From a virus, in IMG/VR virus record IMGVR_UViG_3300045988_135203, positions 49,699-113,698 of that record: DNA of 64,000 bases; one strand, 5' to 3'. Below the pieces are notes generated by a model that was not told where the DNA came from, made no database searches, and saw only the letters and a program-made list of their open reading frames with translations. This document shows positions 1,850-24,100 of the stretch, one piece after another (position 1 is the stretch's first letter; each line of letters opens with the position of its first letter). The position numbers and the translations under genes were made by a program.

Positions 1850-1864
1850 TCAGGAGGATTATAT

Positions 1865-3886: not shown

Positions 3887-3904
3887 GAGTTAAAGGAGAT
3901 TTGG

Positions 3905-4489
3905 TTGATGAAAGTAGAGAATTATAAACCGACTAAATCAAGTTTTTTATCTATTGAAAAAGATATATCTATAATTATAGATAGTATTTTTTCTAATAAA
4001 ACTTTATTAAAGTTACTTTATTATGCATCTAAAGATGCTCTTGAAAGACCGGCTTTAACTGAAGAACAAAAATTGGAAATGGTAGATAAGAATATAAAAA
4101 TTAGACCAAAAGTCTATGTTGATAATGATGTAAAAACTTATATAATAATTAGAATTAGAGATTTTGTTCCTAGCTCAAATCCAGAATATCGAAGTTGTAT
4201 AATTGAATTTGATATTTGTTGTCATATGGAGCAATGGGCTATGAAAGATTTTAAATTACGTCCTTATAGAATCGCCGCAGAATTAGATTCAATGTTTACA
4301 AATAAGCATTTATCTGGAATAGGAACTTTAGATTTTGCAGGAACTAGTGATTTAAACCTAACAGATGAGTATTGTGGTTTATGTTTACAATTTTTAGCTT
4401 ATCATGGAGATGAAGATAAAAATAATGTACAACCAAAAGAAAATCCAGCTCATGTACAAGATTTTAAAGATATTATAGAGGATTATTAA
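3905..4489 (+). CDS. hypothetical neck/tail-completion-sized protein (194 aa)
   Basis: RBS AAAGGAG upstream. TTG at 3905 or ATG at 3908 could be the start. Sits within the connector gene block. Confidence 0.5.
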   Translation: MMKVENYKPTKSSFLSIEKDISIIIDSIFSNKTLLKLLYYASKDALERPALTEEQKLEMVDKNIKIRPKVYVDNDVKTYIIIRIRDFVPSSNPEYRSCIIEFDICCHMEQWAMKDFKLRPYRIAAELDSMFTNKHLSGIGTLDFAGTSDLNLTDEYCGLCLQFLAYHGDEDKNNVQPKENPAHVQDFKDIIEDY

Positions 4490-4490
4490 T

Positions 4491-5216: not shown

Positions 5217-5291
5217 ACAAGTTATTTATTTATTTCTTTTAAATAAATAATTTATTTTATATTTATGAAATTTATAAGGAGGAAATAGCTT

Positions 5292-6293
5292 ATGCGATTC
5301 GGTGTCCGCGAAATTTGTGATGTTGTATTAAAGGCTAAATCAGCACAAAAAATCGGTAACAAAATCTTTTATGCTAACGAGCCTGTAATTTATTTTGATA
5401 CACTGAAAACTTCTAGCCTTGAAGGTGCAGCTACTACAGTATATGCACAGGGTGGTAGAGGTAATGCTCGTTTAGTAGCTTGGGAAGGTGAAAGAACAGT
5501 AACCTTCACTATGGAAGATGCTCTTATTTCTCCAGAAGGATTTATGATTCTTTCTGGTGCAGGACTTATTAATTCTTCTGAAAAGAAACCTATTTATCAG
5601 CATGTTACAGAAACTATTGATGCTACAATGGTTAAAGTTTCTGGTGAGGATGAAGAGCTAGAGTATCAGATTGAACTTAGTAAGAAACCTTATCTTCCAG
5701 CAGATAAAAATGATAACTTCGCTTATGTAATGTTTATGAAAAATGGTGAGATTGTATCTGAGCCATATATTCCAGTACATGAAGAAGTTGACAAAAATGA
5801 TGATGGTTATTATGTGCTTAGAGTAAGAGCTCATAAAGCATATAGCGGCGTAGCCCCAGGAGAAGAGAATGCTCATCAATATGCACTTGATAAAACTTCT
5901 TGGAATGCTACTACATTTGATAGTGTTTTAGTAGATTATTACGTAGAACATGCAGGTTCTGATGCACAACAGATTGAAATTACCGCAGATAAATTTGGTG
6001 GTAACTATTATCTTGAGGCTTCTACATTATTCCGTGATACTAATGGTGTAGATATGCCTGCTGAATTTATTATTCCTAACTGCAAGATTCAATCTAACTT
6101 TACATTCACAATGGCATCTTCTGGAGACCCAAGTACATTTACATTTACTATGGATGCATTCCCAGACTATACAAGATTTGACCACAGTAAGAAAGTTCTT
6201 GCTGCAATTCAAATTATTAAAGATGCAGGAAGTCAAGATTTACATCGTCATAGTACTGCTCATGAAGCAGCTCATGATTCATTATCTTGGTAA
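5292..6293 (+). CDS. putative major tail (tube) protein with a C-terminal extension (333 aa)
   Basis: Strong RBS AAGGAGG. Preceded by an AT-rich palindromic spacer and followed by a strong terminator (6310-6343). This matches the usual expression pattern of abundant tail tube proteins. Position is upstream of the chaperone and TMP. The fold itself was not verified. Confidence 0.4.
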   Translation: MRFGVREICDVVLKAKSAQKIGNKIFYANEPVIYFDTLKTSSLEGAATTVYAQGGRGNARLVAWEGERTVTFTMEDALISPEGFMILSGAGLINSSEKKPIYQHVTETIDATMVKVSGEDEELEYQIELSKKPYLPADKNDNFAYVMFMKNGEIVSEPYIPVHEEVDKNDDGYYVLRVRAHKAYSGVAPGEENAHQYALDKTSWNATTFDSVLVDYYVEHAGSDAQQIEITADKFGGNYYLEASTLFRDTNGVDMPAEFIIPNCKIQSNFTFTMASSGDPSTFTFTMDAFPDYTRFDHSKKVLAAIQIIKDAGSQDLHRHSTAHEAAHDSLSW

Positions 6294-6309
6294 TTAAATA
6301 ATGATTTTT

Positions 6310-6343
6310 AGGGGAGAGATTTTATATCTCTCCCCTAATTTTG
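6310..6343 (+). terminator. rho-independent terminator (AGGGGAGAGAT / ATCTCTCCCCT)
   Basis: 11-bp perfect stem with a 5-nt loop, followed by AATTTT. Confidence 0.75.
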
Positions 6344-6361
6344 CGTTAAAGGAGAATTTAT

Positions 6362-7837
6362 ATGGCAGAAATAAGTTTTGATGAATATTTTAACTTTCCA
6401 GATACTTATAAACAAAATTTATTAAATGCTACAACAACTGTTAAAGAAAAAATTTCATCTTTGAATAGAGTTAATCCTGATGAATATGCAAAGTTAGAAA
6501 ATTATTTAAACAGTATTTTTTATCCATCAGAAGATAATGCTGATGGAGTAGCTTATAGTAAACAATTTATGAATAGATTGCGGTCTTTGTATGAAGCAAA
6601 AACTGATAAAGTTATTACGAGCGATATTGGCGATTTAACATATAAAGCTTTAAATAAAAAGCCTACTTTAGATAGAAGTGTTAATGTACACAGAGCTTCT
6701 TTAAGAACTATGAAAAGCCAATATGATGCAATAGTTAATGTAATTAATAATTTAGCTGATACAGAAAATGCTAAAGAAATTCAGGCGGTTTTAGATGAAG
6801 TTAATAAACAATATGGTAACGTTTTAGCTACTATAGAAGATGTATTAAAAACTTATGAAGATGAAGGAGAAACTACTCAAATTGGTAAAGGTATAGTTAA
6901 AAAGCATGGTGGAAATTTTGAAAAAATAAATGAAGCACAGAATGGATTAAGAGCTTTATACAATACTTTTAATAATGCTGGATTAATTATACTTCCTATA
7001 GACTATGGAGATTTTCTTGAATATGGATTAGGTTTATTATCAAATGAAATGGCTGAAATAACAGATAATTTTGAGGATGAAGTTATTGAATATATGCAAG
7101 ATAAAATTGTATTAGGTGGTCAAAATGTTGCACGTGGTGGTGGTTTAGTAGATGTAGATATGTCTATTAAATCTGATTTCAAGAAAAAGACAAAAAAGAT
7201 TGAAAATGGTTCAACCAAAATCTTCTGGCAATATCAAAATATTACTCTTAGTTATGATCCTTCTAATATAACAGTTTTAAATACTGGTGTTAAAAAGCAA
7301 GGTAAAGTCGATGTAATGCTAACATTACCAGATGCAATGGGCGGTGAAAAATTTAGAATTTCCGCAAAGAACTGGAAAACAATAGATGAATTAAGAAATT
7401 TAGGTTCTACTTCTCTTATGGATGCAATACATAGAAATACTGGAGATTTAGAATTAGATTATTATATGTTATCTATGCAAAACCCAAAAGAAGTATATAT
7501 GCAGGCTGCAGATGAGCTAGCTAAGATTTGTATTTTTGCGGATATTGCTATGGGTTTGTCCCAGGAAGAAGGTTATGCGGATACATTGGTTATAAATGAT
7601 AGAACTGCAAAACATCTATATGTTCGTAATATTCCTCAAATGATATTAGATGCGGTTAATAAGAATTTATCTAGTTTAGCATTAAAAGGGTATGATGTAT
7701 CTTCTATTAGTGAAGAAGCCGCGAAGGCTAGACAAATAGCCATGAAATTAAAAGAAGGTCGTCTTGAGGAATATTTTAGAATTTTTAGAAGTCAATTAAG
7801 AAGTATTGAGGTTTCTGTTCAGTTTTTAGCCCCATAA
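6362..7837 (+). CDS. hypothetical tail-associated protein (491 aa)
   Basis: RBS AAAGGAGAA. Lies between the putative tube gene and the chaperone-like gene. Too large for a canonical gpG chaperone and has no tube or sheath signature that I can verify. Confidence 0.5.
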   Translation: MAEISFDEYFNFPDTYKQNLLNATTTVKEKISSLNRVNPDEYAKLENYLNSIFYPSEDNADGVAYSKQFMNRLRSLYEAKTDKVITSDIGDLTYKALNKKPTLDRSVNVHRASLRTMKSQYDAIVNVINNLADTENAKEIQAVLDEVNKQYGNVLATIEDVLKTYEDEGETTQIGKGIVKKHGGNFEKINEAQNGLRALYNTFNNAGLIILPIDYGDFLEYGLGLLSNEMAEITDNFEDEVIEYMQDKIVLGGQNVARGGGLVDVDMSIKSDFKKKTKKIENGSTKIFWQYQNITLSYDPSNITVLNTGVKKQGKVDVMLTLPDAMGGEKFRISAKNWKTIDELRNLGSTSLMDAIHRNTGDLELDYYMLSMQNPKEVYMQAADELAKICIFADIAMGLSQEEGYADTLVINDRTAKHLYVRNIPQMILDAVNKNLSSLALKGYDVSSISEEAAKARQIAMKLKEGRLEEYFRIFRSQLRSIEVSVQFLAP

Positions 7838-7913
7838 TCTAAAAATTTGACTTTGTTATTTTTTTTCGTTACAATTAACATATAAAACAAGTGAAAAAGG
7901 AGAAAAAGTTAGA

Positions 7914-8441
7914 ATGGCTAAAGTAACTTTTAACAAACTAAATTTAACTAAGAATACAGAAATAAAAAATATAGATATTAATGAAAATATTATAGAAGTT
8001 AAACAATATTTACCAGTAGAAGAAAAACTTGAATTAATTTCTTATATTGTAAATATGGCACATGATGAAGATTATAATTTTTCAAATCCTGTAAAAGTTG
8101 AAGTATTTGCGGGAATTGGTATTATTAAATATTATACTAACATAACATTTACTGAAAAACAACTTGAAAATCCTGCAAAAATTTATGATTTATTAAATTC
8201 CAATAATGTTATTAATAATGTTATTGCGGCAATACCAAGTAATGAATATGATGAAATCCGCACTGGTATTGAAGATACAATTAAATCTATTTATCAATAT
8301 CAAAATAGTGCACTTGGTATTTTAGATACCATTGGTCAGGATTATTCAGATTTAAATCTAGAAGCTGATACTATAAATGAAAAACTTAGTAACCCAGATA
8401 ATATGAAGTTACTTCGTGATGTGTTAGCCAAATTAGGTTAA
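7914..8441 (+). CDS. putative tail assembly chaperone (acidic, 175 aa)
   Basis: RBS AAAGGAG. Small, acidic and located immediately upstream of the TMP, which is the classic gpG/XkdN-like chaperone position. No -1 frameshift partner ORF is evident. Confidence 0.4.
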   Translation: MAKVTFNKLNLTKNTEIKNIDINENIIEVKQYLPVEEKLELISYIVNMAHDEDYNFSNPVKVEVFAGIGIIKYYTNITFTEKQLENPAKIYDLLNSNNVINNVIAAIPSNEYDEIRTGIEDTIKSIYQYQNSALGILDTIGQDYSDLNLEADTINEKLSNPDNMKLLRDVLAKLG

Positions 8442-8478
8442 TTATATTACTTTAGAAATTAAATTTAATAGGAGTTAA

Positions 8479-8514
8479 GGGAAGAGTTAATTATTAACTC
8501 TTCCCTCTTTTTTT
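8479..8514 (+). terminator. rho-independent terminator (GGGAAGAGTTAA / TTAACTCTTCCC)
   Basis: 12-bp perfect stem, 3-nt loop, followed by TCTTTTTTT. Confidence 0.8.
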
Positions 8515-8566
8515 ATTTTGCGCAAGATAAAGAGAGAAATAACGGAGAGAAAGGAGTAAAATAAAA

Positions 8567-11500
8567 ATGGCTAAAAAATTGAATGTTGAATTAGGTTTTT
8601 CGGTTAATAATTCATCTGCTAAAAAACAAATAGATGATTTACTTAACCAACTTCAAAAAATTCAAACAACTCCTTCTAAAGTTTTTGATGACAAAGATTT
8701 AAAAGATGCGAGTAAAGCCGCACAAGAATTACAGCAACATATCAGAAATGCTGTTAATACTAATACAGGTAAGTTAGATTTAACTAAATTTGCTACAAGT
8801 TTAAGTAAATCTAATACAAATCTTGAATATTTTAGAAAACAACTTACTAAAGCTGGTACAGATGGGAAAAATAGCTTTGCTAGTCTAACAAATGCAATAG
8901 CACAAGCTGATGCCCCAATGTTAAAATTAAATGGCCGTTTAGGCGAATTTATGACCACTTTGAAAAACTCTGCTAGATGGCAACTTTCTTCAAATATTCT
9001 ACATGGGCTTGAAGGAGCTCTCGGTTCTGCCATTGGATATGCAAAAGATTTAGATGAATCTTTAAATAACATTCGTATTGTAACAGGTAAAAGTACAGAT
9101 GATATGGCTTCTTTTGCAAAAGAAGCCAATGAGGCTGCAAAAGCTTTAAGTACAACTACTACTAATTATACAGATGCAAGTTTAATTTATTATCAACAAG
9201 GTTTATCTGATGAAGAGGTAAAAAAGAGAACTGACATTACTGTTAAGATGGGTAATGTTGCACGTGAAAGCGCAGAAGAAGTTTCACAATACATGACTGC
9301 AATTTGGGAGAACTATGCAGATGGTTCTGAATCATTGGAATCATATGCAGATAAAATTACAGCTTTAGGTGCTGCAACTGCATCAAGTTCTAAAGAAATT
9401 GCGAATGGTCTTGAAAAATTTGTTGCTGTTGGTGACCAAATTGGTTTATCATATGATTATGCAACTGCTGCATTAACTACTATTTTAGCTAAAACTCGTC
9501 AAAGTGAAGATGTAGTAGGTACTGCATTAAAAACAATTTTTGCACGTATCCAAGGCTTTAACTTAGGTGAAACCGCAGATGATGGTGTTACATTAAATAA
9601 ATATTCATCCGCTTTAAAAGCTGTTGGTGTTGATGTATTAGATGTTAATGGTGAAATGAAGGATATGGATACTATTCTTAATGAATTAGCATCTAAATGG
9701 GGAACTTTAGGCAAAGCACAACAGAACGCTTTAGCACAAACAGTTGCCGGTGTTCGTCAATATACTCAATTAGTTGCTCTTATGGATAATTGGGATTTTT
9801 TTAAAGAAAATCTTGATACAATAGAAGATTCAGAAGGTGCCTTACAAAAACAAGCTGATATTTTTGCCGATTCTTGGGAGGCAGCAAGAAAAAGAGTAAA
9901 AGCTTCTTGGGAAGGTCTTTATGATGATTTAATTGATACTGATGGAATTACTAAATTAGATAATATTTTAGCAGATACTCTTGATATATTAGATGATGTT
10001 ATTAATAATTTTGGTGGATTACAAGGCGTCTTAGGAACTATTGCAGGATTTATGATGCAGAAATTCGCCAAAGAAGTACCTGGAGCTTTAAATAATTTAT
10101 TAGCTTCATTAAATTTAATAACTAATAAATCTCAAACTCAGGCTACACAGATGCTCGAAGAAGTGGCAAAACAGCAGAGGCAAGTCGCAAATAATGAACT
10201 TGGAGCTTCTGGTTTACCAACAGCTGAAAATTTAACTTATTCTGCTGAATTACAACAATCTGCAAAATTAGCTGAATTAAAAGCTACTTTAGCCAAAGAG
10301 AGTAAAAATTTATCTACTCAGGAAAAAGAAGAAGCCCAAAGATTAATTGAAATTACTGAAGCTAGATATAAAGATATTCAAGCTATTGGTAAACAAATAG
10401 AAGAGCAAAAAAAAGCTGAAGAATCAAAGGTTAGCGGCTTAGCTTCTAGTATGGCAAATAGAACGGTTACTAGTGAAGGTAAATCTGATGTTGATTATAA
10501 TAAAGATTTAGCTAAAGCCACTAGTGAATATCAAAAACAAATTGATGCTGTTAAAAAATTATCTTTTTCTCTTGGAGAGTTAAAAGAATTAAAAACTACT
10601 ATCTCTGAGCAAAAGGATATTTGGGAAGACCCAAATACTAAGGCTCAACAATTTGAGCAGAACTTAAAATTAATTATTCAGTCAATAGAAGAAACTTCTG
10701 CAGATTTAGCCGGAACTGCGAGTTTTGAAAAGTTAACTAAACAGTTCGATGAATTGCAACAACATTTAAAAGATGGGTCTGGAAATTTTGATGAAATTAA
10801 AAATAAAATTCTAGATACTATGACAGAATTAGCAGGAGACAATGTTGCTTCTGAATTGGAAATTAGTGTTAAAGATGCTCAAAATAGAATACAAGAATTA
10901 GTTGATAACTTAAAAGCTAAAGGCTTTAATGAAGAAGCTGAAAAAATTGAGCAGTTAGGAAAAGCTTTTGAGAAATTAGGAGGTAGCGCGCAAAGAGGTG
11001 CACAAGGTCTAAGAAGTTTAAATGAAATTAATATTCCTAAGCATTTAACTAAAATTTCAGAAGGAATTTTTTCTACTATTGGAGCTTTATCTCAATTAAC
11101 TTTTAGTTTTCAATCAGTGGCTAATGGATTTACTACATTAAATGATTCATCTGCTACAACATCTGAAAGAATTACTGCAGCTACCTCTTCTTTGATGTCT
11201 TTAAGCTTTGCTGGTAAAGCTGCAATTTCTACATTTAAAGGTTTGGCCGAGGCTACTTCTGTAGGGTTTGCTGGAGCTTTGGGAATAGCTACTGTGGCCA
11301 TATCTGCTATATTAGCTGCAATTAGCTATGCTTCCCAAAAGAAAGAAGAAGAAATTAAAAAAGCTAGAGAAGAAGCTCAAAATTCTTTAAATGAAGTTGA
11401 TGAAATTCAAGAAGAAGTAGATAAATTAAACAGTTTATCTGAGAAGTATTCTGATGCTAAAAAGAATTTTGATGAAAATAAAAATGCTGATAATAATTCA

Positions 11501-14500
11501 GCTTTAATAGACAGTACACGGAATTTAGCTGAAGAACTAAATAATGAAATAGATGCTTTAAAAGATACTCATTCTGAATTGGAAAATGTTAATGAAGAGA
11601 ACATTATTGCTCAAGGCACTTATAATGATTTAGAGCAATCTATTAGGGATGTTACTAAAGCCAGAATGGAAGATAAGGCTGCAGTGGCAAAAACTGCAAT
11701 GCAAGATGCTGGAATTGCTTTTTCTAAAAGTATGACCAAAGGTAGAGGTAATACTTTATTTGGAGAATATCAAGCTGATATTAATGCTAATAATTATAAT
11801 AAATATTTAGATGAATCTTTAAGTAAAGCAGATTCTAGTAAAGTTAAATATAATACTTATAATGGGCAAATAAATTTACGTGCAAATTATGATCCAAATG
11901 ATATTGAAGCTACATATAAAAGTGAAATCGAAACTTATGAAGAAGTTTTAAATGCGGTAACTGAAGCTAAGAAAAATGCTAGTGCTGCAGGAGCTGAAGA
12001 ACTTCAAGATTTAGAAAATTCAGATGGTTATAAAAATTTAGTTAGCTGGCTAGAAAAAGCAAAAGATGATTATGATTTATTAACTCAGTCTACTAAAGAG
12101 TTTAAAGATGCTAATGGAGTCCAATATTTACAAGATACTCTTACTGCATTTGGTGATGTAAATGTAGATTCTATTAAAGAATATAGTAAAGTAGTAGATG
12201 ATTTAGCAGAAAGGCTTGCTAAACAGGAGTTAGGTTATGACCAAAATGCTACTTTAACAGATGATCAATTAGAAGCTGTTAAGAAAGAGACTGAAAACCA
12301 AAAAGAATTAGCTCAAAGTACTTTAGAAACTTCTGGAGCATATGATGAGTTTGCTAATTCTTATGGAACTGCACAAGATGCTATTACTAAGGCGACAAAA
12401 AGTAAAGACGAAGGTGGTTCTGGTTGGGATAATAGTAAAGTAGATTTAAATGATTATTATTTAAATCACTTACAAACTGATGATGAAAGAAAGTTATTTG
12501 TTCAATTAGATTTTGACCAAGATCAATCAGTAAAAAATCTTGATGCTCAATTAGATTATTTACAGGCTCAAGCAGATTCTAATAAAGTAATAAACATTAC
12601 AACTTCTATTGATGCAGCTTTAGGAGCATTAGCTTCTAGTAAATCAGATAAGATGTCTACTATTCAAAACCTTATTGATTGGGGTAAAAATGGTATTGAG
12701 TCTTTTGAGGAGTTTAGTCAAAAGACAGAAGAAGAACAATTTGCAACATTAATTGCTTTAGGTAGACAATTCGCACAATCCACTGATGAAAATACTAAAA
12801 AGTCTAAGGATGAAATGAATAAAGCCTTAGAGGAAATAAAACAAAATCGTCAGGATTTAGAAGCAGAATTAACTGCAGCACAGAATAAAGTCGAGAATGC
12901 AAAGACTGATTTAGAAAAAGGTCAAGCTCAGAAAGAGGTAGATGCATTACAAGAACAACTTAATAATATGGATGCCGATATCGAGGAAAAGAAAGAAGAA
13001 ATTAAAAATTTTACTGCGGATAAAGGCTTTAATCCAACTTATGAGACTAATGAAGATTATCTTGATAAGTTAAGTGATCTTGATAAATTAAATACTTTAC
13101 TTTCTACTGGACAAGAATTATCTGGAGGTTTAAAACAAGAACTTGCAGATATGATAGTTTCTCTTGATAATACTGATGTTGAAGAGAAATTTAAACTTCT
13201 TACAAGCACTTTAGAGTCTGGAAAAATTGATATAGATAATTTTAATGAAGCATTATTGCAATTATCTTCTTCAGGAGAAGTAACAGCTGAACATTTACAA
13301 GAAATTTTTATGAAGGATGATGGTTCTATTGATAAGGACTTCATGGAAAGTTACTCTGAAAATTTACAAGCAGTTGCTCAAAATTATGATAATTGTACTG
13401 CAGCTTTAGAAAGATACAAACAAGCTTTAGCTAGTGGAAATGAAACTCAACAACAGATTGCACAATCTGCTCTTGAATTGTCTGTTCGTGCAGGAGAAGA
13501 TGGGGAAAAATATGGAGTAGATGCTGAAAGACTTGAAATTTTAGCTTCTACATATTTAGATGAAGCTAAAAATCTTAAAGCTGTTACTGAAGAAGGAGCA
13601 AATGCTGCTGAAATAGCTGAAGATATGGCAGTTGCTGAAGTCCGTTTGAATGCAGCTATTGAAGATTTATATAGTAATTGGGAAGATTATCAAAGTATTG
13701 TTGATATATGTAATGATACTTTATCCGAAGGCACTGATGCTACTGTACGTCAAATTATGGCAGATAGTAAATTATCTAAATCATTTATTCAATTACGTAA
13801 AGATGTCGCTGGATTATTAAATACATCTGAAGATATGCTTGGTAGTGATTGGATTGTTAGCCAAATGGATAATATTCAAGCAGCTGCAGAAGGTAATGAA
13901 GAAGCAATAGAAGCTTTAAGAGAAAGTGCAGCTCAAGAAATTCTTTTAAACACTAATGTTGATAACGTTTGGAATGATATAGACGGTTTATCTGCAGCAA
14001 TAAATGAAATACCTGATGGAGAAATTGACTTAGAGAGTGATAACTTTATTCAGGGTCTTGTCTATGTAATGCAACAAGCGGGTATGGCTCGTGATGAAAT
14101 CGAAACCGCATTACAAGGAATGGGTATTAGTGTTGATCTCGATGAAGCTGACCAAAGTTTACAAGATGCTATTAATGACTTTCAATGGAATGGTGAAATA
14201 GCTGGTAAAGCATTTGCAGATGGCGTAGCTGCTAATGCAGGTGTTGATGCTGAAACTGTAACGAAACAAGATAAAGCCGAGGATGAACAAACTTATAGTG
14301 GCTTTAAGGTTAATATGCATAGAAATACTAATTATGGTAATGTACCAGTAATTAGTGGTAATAGTTTATTTGGTTTTCATGTAGAACAAGTTCCAACTCA
14401 ATATATTACTTATGATGAACAGATTGAACCTACTCCAGAAAAAACTACTGATACAAAACAACAAACCACTATGGCTTTAAAAGTTAAATCAGCTAGTAAA

Positions 14501-17500
14501 GAATCTGGTGGTCATATTACTACTACTAATAAACCAGGTGGTACTAATAGACAACCTGCGGCTACTAGAGCAAGAGCTGCAAGGACTCCTCATTCTAGTT
14601 CAGGCACTCGTTCAACTCCAAGAGCTAAAACTTTTAGACCTTCTCGTGAAGTTAATGTTTCTGATATTGTTAAAGATGATAAAAAGAAACTTAAAGATGA
14701 AAAAGAACGTTATCATGTAATTAATAATCAATTAGAAGATATTTCTCATAACTTAGCTGATATTGCTCAATTAAAAGATAGAGCATTTGGTAAAAATAAA
14801 TTAAATGCTTTAAAAGCTGAAAATAAAGAGCTTCAATCTCAAGCTAAGGCGCAGGCTAAATTAGTTAAAGAAACTGAAAAATATTTAAAGATTGATAAAG
14901 CTGCAGTTCAAGCATTGGGCGCAACTATAGGGTCTGATGGAACTATTACTAACTATGATGCATTAATGACTAATAAAGTTAAATCTTATAATAATTCTGT
15001 ATTAGCTTATGCTAAAATGCAAAAAGCTGCAGAAGATGAATATAATAGAGCAATGCAAGATGCTACCAATAGATATAATGCCAGTAGTAGAAGTGATGCA
15101 GATAGCGCTATTTATGATGCGGCAGCTGAACGAGCTAAAGAGCGCAAAGATGAAGCTGATAAACAAGCTGAACGTTATAAAAAACAAATTGATGAAGATT
15201 ATAAAGATTTTACTGATAAAATTAATCAATATGAAGAAACTTATGATAAAATGCGTGAAGAAAAATTAAAAGAGCAACAAATTCAAGATCAAATTTATGA
15301 CAATGAACTTGAAACTATCCAATATGAAGTTGAAATTAAAGTTGATGTTGATGAAGACACTCTTAAATTTTTAAATGAGCTTTTTGACCAAATGGGTGAT
15401 AGCGCAGATTATGCAGCAGACCGTATTGCTAATTTAACTAAACAAGCTAAAGCTTATAATAATGAAGCTAAAGCTTATGAAAATGGTATTTCTAGTATTC
15501 TTAAACATGCTGGCGCAGATCAAGAACTTATCAATGGATTTATTAATGGTAAATTAACTAAAGACCAGATTAAAGAAATGGGAGCACTTGGTTTTACTGA
15601 AGGTGATGCTGAAGCTTTAAGGGATTATAGTGATAAATTAATTGAACTTAATAATAATTATAGAGACCTTAGAGATACTATGGTTGACCAAGTAAGTGCG
15701 GCATTTGATGAATATATTGAAAAGCTTGAAGATGCATCGGATAAAATTGAAAAACTTCAAAAAGTTACTGAAACTTATAAGAATATTATTGATGTAGTTG
15801 GAAAACGTATTCTTGACCCTACTGGTAAAATTACAAAAGCTTTAGATGATGCGGCATTTAATTCTGCAAAAAATCTAACTAAGTCAAATAAATCTACTTT
15901 AGACTTTGCTGAGAATGCATTAAAAGAAGCTAAAAAAACTAGAGATTCATTAGCTAAACAATATGGTGAAGATAATGAAACTGTTAGAAAATGGGATGAA
16001 CAAGTTAAGGAACTTGAAGATAAACGTGATGAAGCTTATTCAGATTGGTTAGATGCTTGGGAAGCTGAATGTGAAGCCGCAAGAACAACTTTTGAAGATA
16101 CATTAGAGTCTATTATAACTAATTTTGAAACTAAAATTTCAGGATTAGCAGGTAGTCTTGACATGTTAAATGATGCTTATGAGCGTCAGTCTAAAGTTGA
16201 TGAAGTATATGTTGATGATTATGAAAAAATATATCAACTTTCAAAATTATCACGAGAGATAAGTAAATCTATTGATGATACAAGTCAAGTAAAAAATAAA
16301 GAGAAATTAAAAAAATTACAAGATGAGATTGTTAAAAAACAAGAACAAGGTGTAAAATTAAGTCAATATGATTTAGATTATCTTGAGAAAAAATATCAAT
16401 TAGAATTAGCTAGACAGCAATTAGAAGAAGCAAAAAATGCAAAAACGCAAGTTACAATGAAACGTGATTCAGAAGGTAATTATGGTTATGTATATACTGC
16501 GGACGCTAATGCGGTTGCAGATGCTGAACAAAACTATGAAGATAGACTTCATGAATTACAAGAATTAAATAGTGAGTATATTAAAACTTTACAAGGTGAT
16601 ATTATTCAAGTCCAACAAGATTTAGAAAATGACCTTAAAGATTTTGCAGAGAATTTTAAAGGTACTCAAGAAGAGTATGAGAAAGGTGTTGCTGAAATTA
16701 CAGAGAAGTATAAAACTTTAATGGAATATAAACAACAACAAATGCAAAATGTATTAAGTAATAATCGTGATTTATATATGAATGATTGGAAATCATATTC
16801 TGAAGCAACTGGATATAAATTATCTGTAGATGCTGATTATCTTGATAAATGGGAAGAAACAAATTATTCAATTATTACAGGGTATGAAACTCTTGAAGAT
16901 GCTATGAGTGCTTGGCGTGATGGTGTTGAACAAGTAACTAATGATGCTAATGAAGCTTATAGAATCTGGTATGAACAAACCAATCAAGCTTTGGAAGATG
17001 GTGGAACTTCAATGGATAATTTTGCTAATAAAGCAGAAGAAGTTGCAGGTGAAGTTACTAGCCAAACAGACAAAATTGCTGAAGGCGCAAAAGAAATGTC
17101 AGAGACTTTTAAAACAAGTTTTGATGACATCCTTGAGAATGCAAAAACATTTTCACAACAGTTTGAAGATGTTATTATGGGAATTATTGATTCCAATACA
17201 AAACTTGCAGATTCTATCAGAAAAGTATTAGCGGAAGCTTCTAAAGTTTCTAGTTCAACAAATTCTGGAACTAATGGAAATTATACTGGAGGTACTTCAG
17301 ATAATATCAATGGAAATGGTTCTTCTACTAGTGGAGGAAGTAATTCTGGCACAGATGCAAGTGGTTTAGATTTTACAGATGGCACTAAAGGTAACAGAAA
17401 AAGTCGTCGAAGTAAAGGAAAAGGCAGAACTTCTAAACTTGATGCAAAAACTAAATATGGTGTTGCTTTAGCTATTATTGAAGGTACTTATGGATGGGGC

Positions 17501-18013
17501 GATGACCCATTTCGTTCTGGAAAGCTTACTCAAAAATTTGGAAGTAATAATGGTATTCAAGCTATTGTTAATAAGCTTTGGGCTGAAGGTAAAGTATTTA
17601 GTGGAGCTTGGGAAGGAGCTTATTATGGTTTAACTTCTAAAGATATGCCTAGATATGCTTATAATAGATTTAATACTGGTGGATATACAGGTTATTGGCC
17701 TGGAGATACTGGTAAATTAGCTTTTCTTGATAGCAAAGAAATTGTCCTTAATAAAGATGATACAGCTAATTTCCTTAGCGCAGTAGATATCGTTAGAGAT
17801 ATTGCTAAGACGATTGATTTAACAGCATCTAGTGCAAGCAATAGTTTTTCTAGACTATTTGCGGCGGCAGGTATAAAAACCGCAGCTAATACACTTGAGC
17901 AAGAAGTTCATATTACTGCAGAATTTCCTAATGCAACAAATAAAAATGAAATTCTTGATGCATTTGATAATGTTATTAATCTTGCTACACAATATGCTAA
18001 TAGAAGTAAATAA
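8567..18013 (+). CDS. tail tape measure protein, 3148 aa
   Basis: Residues ~150-330 (ESLNNIRIVTGKS...GLSDEEVKKRTDITVKMGNVARESAEEV...GTALKTIFARIQG) match the conserved TP901-family/PhageMin_Tail TMP core as I recall it. The rest is very long predicted coiled coil rich in E/K/Q/L/A. There is a hydrophobic segment near aa 880-920 (FAGALGIATVAISAILAAISYA). The gene sits in the canonical position after the tube and chaperone genes. Confidence 0.85.
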   Translation: MAKKLNVELGFSVNNSSAKKQIDDLLNQLQKIQTTPSKVFDDKDLKDASKAAQELQQHIRNAVNTNTGKLDLTKFATSLSKSNTNLEYFRKQLTKAGTDGKNSFASLTNAIAQADAPMLKLNGRLGEFMTTLKNSARWQLSSNILHGLEGALGSAIGYAKDLDESLNNIRIVTGKSTDDMASFAKEANEAAKALSTTTTNYTDASLIYYQQGLSDEEVKKRTDITVKMGNVARESAEEVSQYMTAIWENYADGSESLESYADKITALGAATASSSKEIANGLEKFVAVGDQIGLSYDYATAALTTILAKTRQSEDVVGTALKTIFARIQGFNLGETADDGVTLNKYSSALKAVGVDVLDVNGEMKDMDTILNELASKWGTLGKAQQNALAQTVAGVRQYTQLVALMDNWDFFKENLDTIEDSEGALQKQADIFADSWEAARKRVKASWEGLYDDLIDTDGITKLDNILADTLDILDDVINNFGGLQGVLGTIAGFMMQKFAKEVPGALNNLLASLNLITNKSQTQATQMLEEVAKQQRQVANNELGASGLPTAENLTYSAELQQSAKLAELKATLAKESKNLSTQEKEEAQRLIEITEARYKDIQAIGKQIEEQKKAEESKVSGLASSMANRTVTSEGKSDVDYNKDLAKATSEYQKQIDAVKKLSFSLGELKELKTTISEQKDIWEDPNTKAQQFEQNLKLIIQSIEETSADLAGTASFEKLTKQFDELQQHLKDGSGNFDEIKNKILDTMTELAGDNVASELEISVKDAQNRIQELVDNLKAKGFNEEAEKIEQLGKAFEKLGGSAQRGAQGLRSLNEINIPKHLTKISEGIFSTIGALSQLTFSFQSVANGFTTLNDSSATTSERITAATSSLMSLSFAGKAAISTFKGLAEATSVGFAGALGIATVAISAILAAISYASQKKEEEIKKAREEAQNSLNEVDEIQEEVDKLNSLSEKYSDAKKNFDENKNADNNSALIDSTRNLAEELNNEIDALKDTHSELENVNEENIIAQGTYNDLEQSIRDVTKARMEDKAAVAKTAMQDAGIAFSKSMTKGRGNTLFGEYQADINANNYNKYLDESLSKADSSKVKYNTYNGQINLRANYDPNDIEATYKSEIETYEEVLNAVTEAKKNASAAGAEELQDLENSDGYKNLVSWLEKAKDDYDLLTQSTKEFKDANGVQYLQDTLTAFGDVNVDSIKEYSKVVDDLAERLAKQELGYDQNATLTDDQLEAVKKETENQKELAQSTLETSGAYDEFANSYGTAQDAITKATKSKDEGGSGWDNSKVDLNDYYLNHLQTDDERKLFVQLDFDQDQSVKNLDAQLDYLQAQADSNKVINITTSIDAALGALASSKSDKMSTIQNLIDWGKNGIESFEEFSQKTEEEQFATLIALGRQFAQSTDENTKKSKDEMNKALEEIKQNRQDLEAELTAAQNKVENAKTDLEKGQAQKEVDALQEQLNNMDADIEEKKEEIKNFTADKGFNPTYETNEDYLDKLSDLDKLNTLLSTGQELSGGLKQELADMIVSLDNTDVEEKFKLLTSTLESGKIDIDNFNEALLQLSSSGEVTAEHLQEIFMKDDGSIDKDFMESYSENLQAVAQNYDNCTAALERYKQALASGNETQQQIAQSALELSVRAGEDGEKYGVDAERLEILASTYLDEAKNLKAVTEEGANAAEIAEDMAVAEVRLNAAIEDLYSNWEDYQSIVDICNDTLSEGTDATVRQIMADSKLSKSFIQLRKDVAGLLNTSEDMLGSDWIVSQMDNIQAAAEGNEEAIEALRESAAQEILLNTNVDNVWNDIDGLSAAINEIPDGEIDLESDNFIQGLVYVMQQAGMARDEIETALQGMGISVDLDEADQSLQDAINDFQWNGEIAGKAFADGVAANAGVDAETVTKQDKAEDEQTYSGFKVNMHRNTNYGNVPVISGNSLFGFHVEQVPTQYITYDEQIEPTPEKTTDTKQQTTMALKVKSASKESGGHITTTNKPGGTNRQPAATRARAARTPHSSSGTRSTPRAKTFRPSREVNVSDIVKDDKKKLKDEKERYHVINNQLEDISHNLADIAQLKDRAFGKNKLNALKAENKELQSQAKAQAKLVKETEKYLKIDKAAVQALGATIGSDGTITNYDALMTNKVKSYNNSVLAYAKMQKAAEDEYNRAMQDATNRYNASSRSDADSAIYDAAAERAKERKDEADKQAERYKKQIDEDYKDFTDKINQYEETYDKMREEKLKEQQIQDQIYDNELETIQYEVEIKVDVDEDTLKFLNELFDQMGDSADYAADRIANLTKQAKAYNNEAKAYENGISSILKHAGADQELINGFINGKLTKDQIKEMGALGFTEGDAEALRDYSDKLIELNNNYRDLRDTMVDQVSAAFDEYIEKLEDASDKIEKLQKVTETYKNIIDVVGKRILDPTGKITKALDDAAFNSAKNLTKSNKSTLDFAENALKEAKKTRDSLAKQYGEDNETVRKWDEQVKELEDKRDEAYSDWLDAWEAECEAARTTFEDTLESIITNFETKISGLAGSLDMLNDAYERQSKVDEVYVDDYEKIYQLSKLSREISKSIDDTSQVKNKEKLKKLQDEIVKKQEQGVKLSQYDLDYLEKKYQLELARQQLEEAKNAKTQVTMKRDSEGNYGYVYTADANAVADAEQNYEDRLHELQELNSEYIKTLQGDIIQVQQDLENDLKDFAENFKGTQEEYEKGVAEITEKYKTLMEYKQQQMQNVLSNNRDLYMNDWKSYSEATGYKLSVDADYLDKWEETNYSIITGYETLEDAMSAWRDGVEQVTNDANEAYRIWYEQTNQALEDGGTSMDNFANKAEEVAGEVTSQTDKIAEGAKEMSETFKTSFDDILENAKTFSQQFEDVIMGIIDSNTKLADSIRKVLAEASKVSSSTNSGTNGNYTGGTSDNINGNGSSTSGGSNSGTDASGLDFTDGTKGNRKSRRSKGKGRTSKLDAKTKYGVALAIIEGTYGWGDDPFRSGKLTQKFGSNNGIQAIVNKLWAEGKVFSGAWEGAYYGLTSKDMPRYAYNRFNTGGYTGYWPGDTGKLAFLDSKEIVLNKDDTANFLSAVDIVRDIAKTIDLTASSASNSFSRLFAAAGIKTAANTLEQEVHITAEFPNATNKNEILDAFDNVINLATQYANRSK

Positions 18014-18020
18014 AATTTTA

Positions 18021-18053
18021 GGGAAGAGTATAATTACTCTTCCCTATTTTTTA
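18021..18053 (+). terminator. rho-independent terminator (GGGAAGAGTA / TACTCTTCCC)
   Basis: 10-bp perfect stem, 4-nt loop, followed by TATTTTTT. Lies directly after the TMP stop codon. Confidence 0.8.
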
Positions 18054-18072
18054 TTTGGGCAAATGATATGAA

Positions 18073-18101
18073 TTGACAAGTTAAAAAAATTATGATAATA
18101 T
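18073..18101 (+). promoter_or_regulatory. sigma-A-like promoter (TTGACA, 17-bp spacer, TAATAT)
   Basis: Consensus -35 TTGACA at 18073-18078, a 17-nt spacer and TAATAT at 18096-18101. Lies between the TMP terminator and the next gene's RBS. Confidence 0.5.
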
Positions 18102-18129
18102 AGAATAAGGAGTGAAAGGAGGCCATCAG

Positions 18130-21100
18130 ATGGCAGATAATGCGAAAGCTTTGGACGATATATTTAAGTCTATAGATATTATTATAGATGGTAGACTTCA
18201 AGGATTAAAATTTGATAAAACTATTACTTGTTCCATTTTAAGTAATAAGAATGCCGCTCGGGGTGAGTATACTGTTACAGATGGCGCAACTACCTTTAAG
18301 GCATATTCTGATGTTACAACTTATCAAGTTAATCAATATGTTTATGTTAAAGTGCCTAATGGTAGTTTTAATAATAAAAAAATAATTACAGGAAGATATA
18401 TAGAAGAAAATAGTGAATACTATACTTATGTTCCACCACTTGATAGTTTTATAGATATGAGTCATAATCTCATTGATAATAGCATTAAACCATTAGGCTT
18501 AGTAGCTAATGGTAAAGAAAAAGAAATTGTTGTGTGGGAAAAGCATAATCTACATTATAATGATTATGATAGAATAGGTATTCGCGCAGGTTTTAGAACT
18601 TGGCTTAATCAATATGATTTGGTCAAAGGTAATTATGGTTTAAAACTTTATGTAGTAATTAAACGTGGAAAAGAAAATGAAGCGATTAATAAGCAAGATA
18701 TTTTTTCTGTATATTTTACTTTAGATACATCTGATTTCTATGGAAGTCTATATAATTATGAAACTTATTATAATCAAGAAAAAGTATTTGATATAGGACA
18801 ATACTTAGATGATGAGCATTATATTTCTGATATAAGATTAGTATTTTTCCAAGATAATAATTTTGAAGATGCTAAAGGAAATAGAATAGCTAGCGCAATA
18901 CCAGATTCTGGGGTAGAATTACCCAAAAATATTTTTATGGCAAGCCCTTATATTGGTATTGGTTATAATAAAAATAAGTATCCATCAGATACAGCATTAT
19001 TATATACTTTTGATTCTTTAGATTATAAGGCGTTATTATCTGACGAAGATAAAGCTAATTTTATTGCGGCTTTGGATGTAAATTCTGAAACTTATAATCA
19101 AGATAGAGATAATATACTTTATGATGCGGCAACCGCAAAAAATCTTTTAAATCAGCTTAATAGACGTAAATTACAAGTTCGATGGATTCATTTTGATGAA
19201 GATATGAATCCATATGTATTTGATAAAAATTCTGATTTACCAGAAACCGCGCAAGTACATTGGTATAGATATTTTCTTGAAGAAGAACTTAGTGATAAAC
19301 TTGCTGGAGCCTTTTGGAAAGAAATTGAAACACCAGATAAAAATTACTTTGAGTATAAAGATTTTGAGCCAGATATGACTCGACAGCATGATATGCTTAA
19401 AGTGATTATTGAGTATCCTTCTCGTGAAACTATTGCTAAACAAATTTATGATTTAAGTCTTAAAACTGGTGAAAAAGAAAATCCAGAAACAGGTAAGATA
19501 GATGAAGTTGGAGATTTACTTTATTCTTTTCTTCCCTCAAATAAAAAGCCAGATGATAAGACATATTATGATTATATAGAAGAAGCTAAATTAAATTTAA
19601 TTAATGCAATTCAAAAACTTGATAATTTACTTGAAGATTATGAGTTACAAGCGAATAGAGTTAATGAATTGTATAAAGAATTGGGTGAAAGACAGCAAGA
19701 ATATAAAAAAGCTCATCCTGAAAAAACAGACGATGATTTAGCTACTGATGAAAAATATCTAGCTATTGCTACATATTTTAATGACCAAGTAGATAATTTA
19801 ACTGATAGAACTAATGAAAAGCGTGACGAATTACAAACTATTAGTAATGAAGTAAGTGCTTATGAATCAGAAATTAATTATTATTCTTCTAGTGTCGTAG
19901 AATTTAAAAATTCTACTAATGTGATTGATAGTACTTCTGTTGATTTAATTAGCGGTCTTGATATTGTATGTGATCCAGAAGGATATAATGGTGTTTATAG
20001 AATTTATGATGATAATGGTGACATTATGAGTTCTAGTGAAAGTATAAAGAAAAGAATCTTGACTGCAACATATGAATCTTTAGTTACAGGTGATAAAACT
20101 CTTGATACTGCGGAAAAAATTTATTGGTATATTCCAATTACTAATACAATGATTCAATATCCAACAGAAGAAACTGAATATTCCTATTATACAAAGGTTG
20201 ATATAACTAATAGTGAATATAATGCGGCATTATATAAAGATAAATATTTTATAAAAGATTTATCTGGTATTTACCATCCTGCTACTTCTGATTATTCTAA
20301 TACTGAAAAATATTATGAAAGAAATACAACCACAACTTCAAAAACTAAGGACGGAAATTATTTTGTTATTTGTAGGAATGGTGTAAGTATTGATTCTGAG
20401 GCTGGAACTGAAGAATCTAAGAATGATAGTCAAATTTTTAGAGTTAAATCTTATTATAGTCAAAGTGCTGTAAATAATACTATTAGATGTATTATCGAAA
20501 AAAATGGGCGTAAATTTGAAAAAGATATTACATTAGTATTTGGTCCAACAGGAACAAATGGTACTACTTATACTTTATCATTAGAGTTTGATAATAAAGT
20601 TTCTGCGGTGACTGTTGCGGCAGATGATGGGAAAAATGGAAGTGGAATTTATAATTCAGTTAAAGTAATTCCGCATTTATATGATTATCAAAATAATGAT
20701 ATAACCGCAAAATTTGCTTCTGCGGGTAAAATTTCTTACTCTTGGTACTGCAAAGGTAATGAGGGATTAGGTATTAGTGACCCAGATGAAACGGATGGTT
20801 CCATTGAATTATTTGGTAAAAGTAGTAATATTGAAGATTATAAGTATTATATACTTTTATGTACAGTAGAAGATGCTACAGAAATTGTACCAAATAGTAA
20901 AATTAATTTAACTGCATATTTACCTATTCCAGTTAGAGCAAGTGAAATATATACTGCTTTTGATGGTGCTACTAAGATTACTTATGATTCAAATGGCGGT
21001 AATCCGCAGTTTTATAAAGATGGATACAAAATATATAAATATAACAATTCTTCTGGAAATAATGAGCCTATAATTAATGCTACTTGGGAAATATCTTTAG

Positions 21101-24100
21101 GTGATGATACTGTTGGTATTGATTTAAAAGATGAATATAAAACAACATCTGTAATTACTCAGTATTATCCTACTGTTACTACAGAAGGTGTTTTAAGTGC
21201 GCCAGCTATGTATTTAAAAGAGAACGGAAAGCAAGTTGGTGTATCATGTAAAGTAGATGGAAAAGTCGTATGGTTTCAACCTTTATATATTTATCAGAAT
21301 TCTTATTCATCTTCATTACTTAACTCCTGGGATGGTAGTTTGACACAAGATGAAAAAAATGGTACTATATTATCAACAATGATAGGAGCCGGAAAAAAGG
21401 ATACCTTTAACCGATTTAATGGTGTGCTTATGGGTGATATAAGTGCAGCGAATAATCAACATGATATTGGATTATATGGATATCATGAAGGCGTTCAAAG
21501 TTATGGGCTTAATATTAATGGTACTGCTTTTATAGGTAAATCTGGTAGGGGTCAGATTAAATTTAATGGAAATTCTGGTTATATCCAGAGCGGAAATTAT
21601 GGTAAGTCTGGTGCAGGTGGAATGCAGATTGACCTTAATAATGGTATATTAAAAATCATTGGTGAAAAATTTACTCAAGCACAAATTAAAGCAAATGGTA
21701 GTATTTTTAAAGGTGTAGACAAAGCCTATCAAGCTCAAATTGATTATTATAAATCAATTAAAGAAAGATTGGATGAGCAAGTAAAAAAATGTTCTGCTAA
21801 AGTAACAAGTTTAACAACTGTGCAAAAAGAATATCAAACTAATGCTAATAATTATAATCAGGCTATAACTGATGAAAATAAAGATAAGCAAACTGCTCAA
21901 TCTAATTTAGATATATTAAATGGTACTGGAACGAGTTCCATTAAACATATACAAAACCAAATAACTAAGGTGCAAGAGCAAATTAAAATAAAGAAGCAAG
22001 AATTAACAAATGCTCAAAAGAGTTCATTAAAAGCTTCTGATAAAATGAAAAAAATTTCAGAAATCAAAACAAAAATTTCTGAATTAAATTCGCAATTAAG
22101 TGGTTATCAAGCTAATTTAAGACAGAAAAAAACTGAGCGTGATAATTTAAAAGCTACAATAACCGTATGTGAAGGTAAGATTAAAACTTATACTCAAAGA
22201 AAGAATTTTTATATAAAGCGTCTTGAAGAAATAAATAATGAAATTACAACTTTAGGTAATGATAAGACTAAATATGAAAAACAATCTGGTAATTATGAAA
22301 ATTTAATTACAAGTCTTAATGATACTATTACAAAATATAATGCGGCAACTGGTGATACAAAGATAAAATATGAAAATTCTATGGTGAATTATCTTAGGGA
22401 GAATTTACCTGATAGTTTTGAAATATCTACTAAAACTACTGGAAGTCAAATTTTAATTTCATCTTTAAGCCCTTATTTAAAAATTATTTCTAATGATAAT
22501 AAGACCTTACTAAATATAGCAGATAATAGTTATTATTTACAGACAAATGATTTTGTTCAGCATGTATTAACTAATGGGGAATTTACAACTAAAGGTCAAG
22601 GTATGAAACTTGATTTACAGAATGGAAAAATTATTTCTTATAATTTTGATTTATTAGCTTTAGATTCTTCCGATGGAAATAATGCTGGGTCTTATATTAG
22701 AATAAGTAAATTTGGAAATCCTTATTTGAGAGTTCATTTTGAAGATAAGACTAAAAATCAAAAGTTAAATATATTAGAAATAACTAAAACTAATTTTTAT
22801 TTATGCTCTCATAATTGGGAAGCTAATAAGGAAGGCATTAATATAGATTTAACTAATGGTCGTATTACTGCTTTTAACAATTTTAACTTAAAAGCCACAA
22901 TAAATACCACAAATCAAAATGATAAACGATATAATGGTTCTTATGTACAAATTAAAAGTGGTGACCCATTTTTTACCGTTCATTTTGAAGATTCATATTC
23001 TCCCAAAAAAAGTTTAGACCTTATTAAAATAGGAATTAATAATTGGTTTATGCAATCTCAAGATTGGGTGAATGGAAAATCCGGTATTCGTTTTGACATG
23101 GCGAAAGGAAAAATTACTGCTTATAGTTTTACAATTAAAGCATATAAAACTGAAAAAAAATATATTTATATAGATAGTACAGATAATACGCATCCATTAA
23201 AAATAGGTAATAAATTTAGTGTAGATTGGGAAGGTAAAGTAACTGCAAGTTATATTGATGCTAGTGGTGGAACTATTGGTCCATTTACTATAGATAGTAA
23301 AGCATTGTATTCTGAAGGAAATGCATTAGGTTCTTCTGGAGTATATTTAGGTAAAGCAGGTCTTAGCGTTAATAATGATTTAATAGTACGAACTTCTCCA
23401 GGAACAAATGAATATACTCTTACTGTTGGTGGTACTTCTTATTTTGGAGGACCAATGACAGTTGCTGGTTCTTTAGGTGTTACCAGTAATGGAAGTATTA
23501 CTGCCGCTGGTAGCATTACTGCAAATGGAACGCTTACTACGAATGGAAGTTTAGTAGTTGCTAATGGTGGTAGTTTTGGTGGAGATATAAATGTAATTGG
23601 AAATCTTAAAGTAAGTGGTAGTATTTATGATTCTAATGGCAGATGGAGTTCTACTGGACAAGATGGTGGTAGTCAGAAATTATATGGTACTTCTGGTAAT
23701 ATTGGTAATTGGGGTATTAATGATGGCCGTATTGCTAATGGTCAAACAACTTTAGGTAGCGATGGAATAATTACTGCTGGAAATATTACTATTAATGGTG
23801 GCGATGGAAGCAATGGAACTATTACATTTGGAAATAATGCAAATATTCATCAGGGCTCATCTACCCTTTATTTACAGGGTGGTACTAATGGAGTACAAAT
23901 AGGGCTTGGAAATGTATCTTCATCTTTGGATTATCCAATTATAATGGCGACAAATACAAAAGTTAATGGAACTTTTAGTGCTACAACAATAAAGCAAGGG
24001 TCTCAAGAGCTTAAAGCTTTGGCTTTTGCGGATGACATAAAAAAAAAGTTTAACATAAGTTATGTAAATTTTGATTTTTGGTATAAAGTGAGCGAAAAAA

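Follow-up and report, generated by a model that had tools for sequence, protein, structure and literature searches.

The 64,000-nucleotide stretch analysed here, referred to as the window, covers positions 49,699 to 113,698 of the IMG/VR virus record IMGVR_UViG_3300045988_135203, and our analysis concerns the very long gene that it carries at 8567..18013 on the + strand. Its product of 3148 amino acids (aa) is a tape measure protein (TMP) of the TP901/PhageMin_Tail type. Our favoured reading, to which we give a probability of about 0.9, is that this protein sets the tail length of a siphophage with a low-GC genome of ~180 kb and the standard genetic code, by the mechanism proposed below. We place the phage in the structural lineage of SPbeta, Tsamsa, phAss-1 and Enterococcus EF1, from animal and human gut communities. 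The comparison of related loci indicates that the length of the protein is kept even where its central part has been exchanged for a highly divergent allele.

A Pfam search detected PhageMin_Tail (PF10145) at aa 188-395 (9128..9751, + strand), with 97.2 bits against a cut-off of 33.2, an E value of 1.5e-27 and a match to the full model (positions 1-201), which confirms the TP901-type core that a sequence-only reading of this DNA had recognised near the N-terminus. In PHROG, the N-terminal ~500-1000 aa of the protein gave matches to eleven families, ten of which are annotated as tape measure protein. The N-terminal match to phrog_4211 extends over aa 21-521 and, when the last 508 aa were scanned alone, the C-terminus was found to match positions 2423-2616 of the 2625 in the same profile (E 4.5e-17), as well as positions 2555-2672 of the 2675 in phrog_34405. 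Since both termini match the ends of these families, both ends are parts of a single TMP. Open reading frames (ORFs) on the same strand, with ~30% GC, fill the left part of the window. On an identical ENA contig (180,528 bp) the upstream genes carry precomputed Pfam matches to the SPbeta-named families YonD_N, YonB, YomW, YomV_2nd and YomU_Tube, and PHROGs 4088, 30998, 3853, 29637, 31155, 6123, 4051, 2729 and 30570 occur upstream of the TMP in the same order as in Enterococcus phage VRE9_2. The TMP gene is located between the YomU_Tube gene (5292..6293) and an ORF in the position of the tail assembly chaperone, on one side, and very large ORFs of tail or baseplate size downstream, one of which matches the tail-protein family phrog_1887; no sheath-like family was seen.

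The gene is one uninterrupted ORF from ATG to TAA, preceded by the ribosome-binding site AAAGGAG, and it encodes an acidic protein of 348.5 kDa (isoelectric point 4.6) with 0.7% Pro and 10.6% Ala. Homologue searches revealed proteins of 3148 aa with 99-100% identity in 19 clusters of a large protein database, from independent ENA, Logan and JGI assemblies and on contigs of up to ~180.5 kb, and more than 100 further homologue clusters were detected beyond these. An alignment of 28 TMP sequences is colinear from end to end, including across the junction at aa 1902-2030, where the linker region itself is conserved. The ORF is real and intact, and it is not the fusion artefact that the sequence-only reading had kept in view, as the same ORF is present in independent assemblies and colinear homologues keep its length. 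The form that an assembly or annotation artefact would take here is a TMP of ~2000 aa at the N-terminal side joined to a second protein that begins near aa 2040. This explanation draws on the internal break at aa 1902-2030, where a beta-hairpin is followed by a disordered basic linker of 50 residues, on the strongly conserved block KDEIERYHxIN... that restarts past this break, and on the TMP of Bacillus anthracis phage vB_BanS-Tsamsa, which migrates as two bands of 280 and 100 kDa (PMC3903500). However, the uninterrupted 3148-aa frame recurs across many independent assemblies, all 28 aligned homologues run colinear over the junction with the linker conserved, and the N- and C-termini match opposite ends of single TMP families, which are 2625 and 2675 positions long. 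In addition, the data are explained without a start codon or ribosome-binding-site context, and the two bands of Tsamsa fit a post-translational cleavage, not a gene fusion. The artefact is extremely improbable and has already been largely refuted. Only trivial two-copy tandem repeats of 9-21 nt are found in the TMP gene, so its length does not come from recent tandem duplication.

The length of the protein is strongly conserved among its closest relatives. The 120 best homologues, with identities down to ~31%, include 118 that measure 3098-3264 aa and stay within +/-3%. When the TMP alignment was divided at invariant anchor residues and the segment lengths were compared, the conserved segments showed a near-fixed length (483-488, 333-355, 225-232 and 106-109 residues). 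In the poorly conserved region of aa 484-1604 the segment lengths vary more, yet these variations compensate.

A blastn comparison with contig L005 revealed that part of the gene has been replaced as a block. Window positions 1..10136 and 14465..23788 are 97-98% identical to L005 at the DNA level, whereas the intervening positions 10137..14464 (4328 nt), compared with L005 11571-15913 (4343 nt), gave no match or a match of 66%. Together with the cluster comparison, these data delimit a central replaceable cassette at 10137..14464 on the + strand, corresponding to aa ~524-1966, whose version in the window we call allele A. Allele A is found in 26 clusters and measures 1443 aa, while allele B is found in 47 clusters and measures 1442-1454 aa. 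The two alleles share ~35% aa identity and differ in length by -1 to +11 residues (mostly 3-5), and the TMP parts flanking the cassette are 92-100% identical. No donor above 45% identity was found for either allele among the 120 best homologues. Since alleles with ~35% identity have nearly equal length, selection appears to act on length independently of sequence, and we consider the allele swap good comparative evidence for selection on TMP length itself. Such a length-preserving exchange may be regarded as a natural experiment, and it gives comparative support to the ruler model for a group of phages that are uncultured.

A further possibility, which we regard as unlikely, is that the alleles are a balanced, length-constrained polymorphism kept by host pressure, which a defence or superinfection-exclusion system could exert by detecting the TMP on its entry into the cell. 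The allele pair, together with the swappable CW_7/LysM slot and the terminator-like hairpins that bracket the gene (both described below), would then make the TMP an infection protein that is modular, regulated separately and exposed to immunity, not a passive ruler. If this were true, the ruler function would oblige each central replacement to preserve length.

Under the favoured reading of the TMP as a ruler, the length of the tail can be predicted. At 0.15 nm per residue, 3148 aa correspond to 472 nm, and the ratio observed in Tsamsa (440 nm per 3123 aa) gives 444 nm. A tail of ~0.45 micrometres (440-470 nm) is a reasonable prediction, with ~10% uncertainty from the non-rod parts of the protein. 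The arithmetic behind the similar estimate of the sequence-only reading holds, and its closest calibrated precedent is Tsamsa, with a TMP of 3123 aa, a measured tail of 440 nm and a genome of 168.9 kb (PMC3903500). The same reading had placed this length at the extreme end of what is known, which the comparison with other phages did not bear out. The TMPs of phAss-1, ctckW2 and ct6IQ4, which the literature treats as a group and, with Enterococcus phage EF1, as a possible new family, have 3149, 3150 and 3209 aa, respectively (PMC10607447), which puts published TMPs of this class at 3123-3209 aa. The TMP of Thermus phage P23-45 has 5002 aa and an RNA polymerase at its N-terminus, and the tail of this phage measures ~1 micrometre (PMC10770324, PMC10034513). 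As the P23-45 protein is 1.6 times longer, the window TMP is not at the extreme. The TMP of Enterococcus phage VRE9_2 has 2673 aa, and the longest relatives of the window protein have 3965-4510 aa. The 3148-aa TMP is large but precedented in its own lineage, and it is not exceptional. Its length mainly confirms that giant siphophages of the gut and Bacillus type carry TMPs of ~3100-3200 residues, with tails of ~0.44 micrometres.

In the relative P0148 (4143 aa) PhageMin_Tail begins at aa 1377, so that an N-terminal extension of ~1200 residues precedes the TP901 core, reminiscent of the P23-45 TMP with its N-terminal polymerase. In another relative, P0116 (4452 aa), the matches to the central region are displaced by ~700-900 residues relative to the window TMP.

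The protein is predominantly alpha-helical, with high helix propensity and a heptad signal above that of shuffled sequences, and non-helical islands interrupt it. The 3.5-residue hydrophobic periodicity over the whole TMP was 0.395, compared with 0.174 for the shuffles and 0.466 for a tropomyosin positive control. The heptad signal peaks at aa 2040-2890, and it is weak at aa 1000-1900 and absent at aa 1900-2040 and 2890-3148 in this periodicity analysis. Almost continuous coiled coil, as the sequence-only reading described the protein, is thus an overstatement: the periodicity is present overall and strong at aa 2040-2890, but non-heptad regions interrupt it. Conservation is highest over the first 484 aa, which contain the TP901 core (53-98% identity across the family, versus 15-34% for the next segment), and aa ~500-1500 are highly variable, with a helical composition and moderate 3.5-residue periodicity. 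A single transmembrane-like segment, FAGALGIATVAISAILAAI, is located at aa 901-919 (11267..11323, + strand), where the 19-residue Kyte-Doolittle mean reaches 2.26. It is the sole hydrophobicity peak of this kind in the TMP, and each of the 12 relatives checked, carriers of allele B among them, has a counterpart within aa 858-956.

An AlphaFold2 model of aa 1500-2199 (700 aa), calculated from a 10-sequence alignment with a mean predicted local distance difference test (pLDDT) score of 70.5, also departs from a continuous rod. The moderately conserved region of aa 1500-1860 (13064..14146, + strand) is modelled as ~20 short helices in an arrangement like an alpha-solenoid (pLDDT ~70-88). It is followed at aa 1902-1978 (14270..14500, + strand) by a long predicted beta-hairpin with strands of ~30 residues and pLDDT of ~40-73, assigned by DSSP as E403-433/E437-467/E472-479 in the numbering of the 700-aa model. 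The hairpin region shows no heptad signal and is conserved in relatives, with the consensus '...ALKVKSAxKxSGG'. At aa 1980-2030 (14504..14656, + strand) a disordered basic linker is predicted, rich in Pro, Ser, Thr and Arg (14% Gly+Pro, net charge +8 to +10, pLDDT < 50). With the 280 and 100 kDa bands of Tsamsa in view, this linker is a possible processing site. Long helices are predicted from aa ~2042 to the end of the modelled stretch at aa 2199.

The compact helical appearance of aa 1500-1860 (pLDDT ~80, not a rod), and its better conservation than that of aa 500-1500, might suggest that the TMP also carries an enzymatic cargo hidden in aa 1500-1980. Such a cargo could be a cell-wall hydrolase, as in SPbeta YomI and enterococcal TMPs, or a polymerase, as in the TMP of P23-45, and precedents exist both for a TMP-fused RNA polymerase (PMC10770324) and for lytic transglycosylases within TMPs (PMC10194240). 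No Pfam or PHROG match to a lytic or enzymatic domain (lytic transglycosylase, M23, Rpf-like) was obtained with the whole TMP or with five segments of it. Sequence searches of the PDB with the whole TMP and with the C-terminal profile produced only spurious matches, to centromere protein K and, through a single short motif, to de novo TIM barrels. Foldseek comparison of the aa 1500-2199 model with the PDB yielded only weak matches to alpha-solenoids of the HEAT/ARM kind, with E values of at least 0.095 and template modelling (TM) scores of at most 0.22, and comparison with BFVD yielded only unnamed fragments of large metagenomic phage proteins. No catalytic-looking conserved motif stands out in the region beyond structural residues. 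With no enzymatic family in any segment, no PDB sequence match and only such weak structural likenesses, a hidden enzyme is quite improbable.

The C-terminal region is set off, as the sequence-only reading had noticed, by a low-complexity linker rich in Gly, Ser and Asn. This linker (aa ~2895-2936) and a Lys/Arg-rich basic stretch that follows it (aa 2942-2957) occupy 17249..17437 on the + strand (aa 2895-2957), and their composition, though not their sequence, is kept in all relatives. The last ~250 aa had been taken as one domain of unknown function; our analysis revealed instead a composite of a CW_7-type repeat and a conserved TMP core. The repeat is a single and diverged one at aa 2966-3004 (17462..17578, + strand), which matches positions 3-39 of the 40 in Pfam CW_7 (PF08230) with 18.9 bits. 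The equivalent modules of relatives match CW_7 in 5 of 13 cases, with a best E value of 6.7e-6.

A profile built from the 13 TMP modules was compared with 1.84 billion representative proteins and gave 461 matches with E <= 0.001, which are of two kinds. The first are proteins of 1000-4356 aa with a single copy ~110-140 residues from the C-terminus. The second are proteins of 130-800 aa with 3-5 tandem matches, including CW_7 lysins with E values of 2.8e-17 to 1e-10. All ten short proteins tested carry 3-5 CW_7 repeats, and nine of them also carry Amidase_2, Amidase_3 or GH25, the remaining one having CW_7 only. The three long proteins tested contain CW_7 above the Pfam threshold (27.1-33.3 bits) in the equivalent C-terminal position, and two of them, P0124 and P0148, also contain PhageMin_Tail. 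In the relatives P0102, P0103 and P0108 the same slot is filled by LysM. The best PDB match of the module profile (E 0.087) is 4CVD, labelled LYSOZYME, which we take to be the Cpl-7 CW_7 repeat, and the conserved GWG..ER...L motif of the module matches this entry. AlphaFold2 predicts three helices in the module, at aa 2960-2972, 2981-2991 and 2997-3006 (pLDDT 78-86), and this is the only confident part of a model of the C-terminal 239 aa whose mean pLDDT is 53.

Judged by these sequence matches, aa 2966-3004 are a CW_7 homologue, and by extension the repeat would bind peptidoglycan, as the CW_7 repeats of Cpl-7 bind its GlcNAc-MurNAc-L-Ala-D-isoGln (GMDP) unit (PMC5705596). The proposal of a C-terminus that acts on the cell wall was therefore right in part: homology supports a peptidoglycan-binding CW_7-type repeat, while a lytic role is not supported, as no catalytic domain was found. 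Wall-acting domains embedded in TMPs are in general well known (PMC10194240), and we found no description of CW_7 repeats in tape measure proteins in the searchable literature.

The small module might also be a structural adaptor to the phage's own hub protein, its likeness to CW_7 being irrelevant to its function. Consistent with this, the score in the window is below threshold, one repeat is present where lysins have 3-5, and the module adjoins the core that would dock into the hub. We nevertheless find an adaptor doubtful. LysM is an unrelated peptidoglycan-binding fold, and its alternation with CW_7 in one slot argues for selection on wall binding and not on fit to the hub. The module also keeps its distance of ~110-140 aa from the C-terminus across TMPs of 1000-4356 aa, and a TMP trimer would show three CW_7 copies, which would mimic the three tandem repeats of Cpl-7. 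Across hundreds of TMP clusters a single CW_7, alternating with LysM, keeps a fixed distance from the C-terminus, which suggests that the TMP grips the peptidoglycan with the part of it that leaves the tail first.

Beyond the module, a conserved TMP C-terminal core occupies aa 3037-3146 (17675..18004, + strand; TGGYTG...KEIVLNKDDT...VHITAEFPN...), with 37 invariant columns over 15 diverse relatives. It is presumed to be the anchor in the tail-tip hub. Its AlphaFold2 model as a monomer has low confidence, as would be expected if the core folds only as an oligomer inside the hub.

The established biology of TMPs, as known from lambda gpH, TP901-1, T5 pb2 and 80alpha, provides the frame for the mechanism that we propose, and it is from this biology that we infer the ruler function, the tail length, the order of exit, the anchoring on peptidoglycan and the insertion in the membrane. 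The chaperone would keep a small number of TMP copies, each a mostly helical chain of 348 kDa, in extended form, while the conserved C-terminal core (aa 3037-3146) would dock into the distal-tail/hub (tail-tip) complex. The YomU-type tube protein (5292..6293) would then polymerise along the TMP up to the N-terminal TP901 core, so that the length of the TMP would fix that of the tail at ~440-470 nm. During infection the C-terminal end would exit first, the single CW_7 repeat would anchor the tip on peptidoglycan, with three copies on offer if the TMP is a trimer, and the hydrophobic segment at aa 901-919 would contribute to a membrane conduit for the DNA.

Several observations weigh against this reading. 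In the wider family TMP length ranges from ~2560 to 4510 aa, and it is therefore fixed within clades and not family-wide. About 400-500 residues depart from a simple long helix, namely the bundle at aa 1500-1860, the beta-hairpin, the CW_7 module and two disordered linkers, because of which any fixed figure of nm per residue is only approximate. The CW_7 match in the window (18.9 bits, E 0.0012) is below the 25-bit Pfam cut-off, and a Foldseek search of the PDB with the low-confidence C-terminal model returned only ferritin and ribosomal noise. No + strand ORF of at least 20 aa is present between 8441 and 8567, leaving the frameshift-extended form of the chaperone without a candidate ORF. Each of the 11 GTDB genomes that match the phage is a metagenome bin, and their taxonomic assignments (Tenericutes, Bacteroidales, Clostridia, Erysipelotrichaceae and Gastranaerophilaceae) contradict one another. 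The host is probably a low-GC gut bacterium of the Bacillota. A near-identity DNA search of 50,697 GenBank phages gave no match to the window.

Comparison with named systems showed both common and distinct features. Tsamsa is likewise a giant siphophage, of a low-GC Gram-positive host, and its TMP is within 25 residues of the length in the window and shares the TP901-type core at the N-terminus. The TMPs of PBC2 and Kirov, relatives of Tsamsa, are 25-27% identical to the window protein over aa ~92-502. However, the detectable similarity is confined to the N-terminal ~400 aa, and the genome, and probably the host, differ. Tsamsa is also cultured and temperate, and the window phage is known from metagenomes alone. 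The group of phAss-1, ctckW2 and ct6IQ4 ('Phassvirus') and the phages of EF1/VRE9 type belong to a shared structural lineage of gut origin, with a TMP N-terminus 28-31% identical to that of the window and with upstream gene order and PHROG families in common. Their genomes have 133-142 kb, compared with ~180 kb for the window phage, and identity is low outside the TMP ends. A label of Schiekvirus for the VRE9/EF1 phages was dropped, as the literature puts Schiekvirus among the Herelleviridae myophages.

In Bacillus subtilis prophage SPbeta the TMP is YomI, of 2285 aa. The N-terminal region of YomI has 24% identity to the window TMP, whose gene has neighbours of the SPbeta families YonB, YonD_N, YomW, YomV_2nd and YomU_Tube. 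YomI is annotated as a TMP with a lytic transglycosylase, whereas the window TMP is longer and has no detected lytic domain. The CW_7 repeats of the Cpl-7 endolysin (PF08230; 4CVD) align with aa 2966-3004, the module profile retrieves CW_7 lysins, and the module is modelled as three helices. Lysins of the Cpl-7 type have 3-5 tandem CW_7 repeats after a catalytic domain, in contrast to the one embedded, below-threshold copy of the window TMP, whose module also has an aromatic and Gly-rich extension of ~30 residues (GKVFSGAWEGAYYG...) unlike the Cpl-7 repeats. In the Thermus phages P23-45 and P74-26 the TMP is also very long (5002 aa) and sets a siphophage tail of great length (~1 micrometre), but it exceeds the window TMP 1.6-fold in length and has a virion RNA polymerase at its N-terminus, a domain not present in the window TMP.

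Two terminator-like hairpins, each followed by a T-run, bracket the TMP gene on the + strand. The upstream one (8478..8506) has a 13-bp stem and ends 61 nt before the start codon, and the downstream one (18019..18046) has a 12-bp stem and begins 5 nt past the stop codon. Both contain an identical 9-bp stem, GGGAAGAGT/ACTCTTCCC, found in two copies only in the 64 kb, where none is expected by chance. We surveyed 20 sequences, namely the window and 19 related loci. The upstream hairpin with its T-run is present in 17 of the 20, with differing stem sequences, and the downstream hairpin is present in all of them, with a clear T-run in 19 and a merely T-rich stretch in L045. The hairpins of the window are conserved in close relatives, and in more distant ones both positions are taken by other hairpins with T-runs. 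A low ratio of TMP to tube protein would be in keeping with an attenuator upstream of the gene.

The genetic code also varies within the TMP family. The window phage uses the standard code, whereas TAG codes for an amino acid in phAss-1, for which this recoding has been published, and in many relatives. The TMP genes of many relatives contain 6-137 in-frame TAG codons (L010-L018, L028, L032, L038, L047, L051-L053, L061, L065, L072 and L084), and those of L062 and L077 contain 15-20 in-frame TGA codons, which points to stop-codon recoding (genetic code 15 or 4). The family thus joins standard-code phages to TAG- and TGA-recoded relatives, which makes it a good system for the origin of recoding.

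Immediately upstream of the TMP gene, the ORF in the tail assembly chaperone position (7914..8441, + strand, 175 aa) matches phrog_30570 with an E value of 4.6e-18; its role is suggested by its position, and the same family also occurs upstream of the TMP region in VRE9_2. This ORF has no overlapping or downstream frame for the usual frameshifted long form, a missing product that counts among the points against the favoured reading given above. Between the tube gene and this ORF there is a 491-aa ORF (6362..7837) with no family match. Downstream of the TMP gene, large ORFs are found at 18112-24585 (2157 aa), 30732-36116 (1794 aa), 38782-46725 (2647 aa) and 49965-54074 (1369 aa), and they are presumably components of a baseplate or adhesion apparatus of very large size. 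In a Pfam scan of these giant ORFs the 2647-aa protein gave the sole match, to a BspA-type leucine-rich repeat at aa 2476-2583. The 2157-aa ORF (18112..24585, + strand), whose counterparts in relatives have 2135-2151 aa, contains at its 3' end a second patch divergent from L005, at window 23789-24583, which is possibly a host-range or receptor-binding segment.

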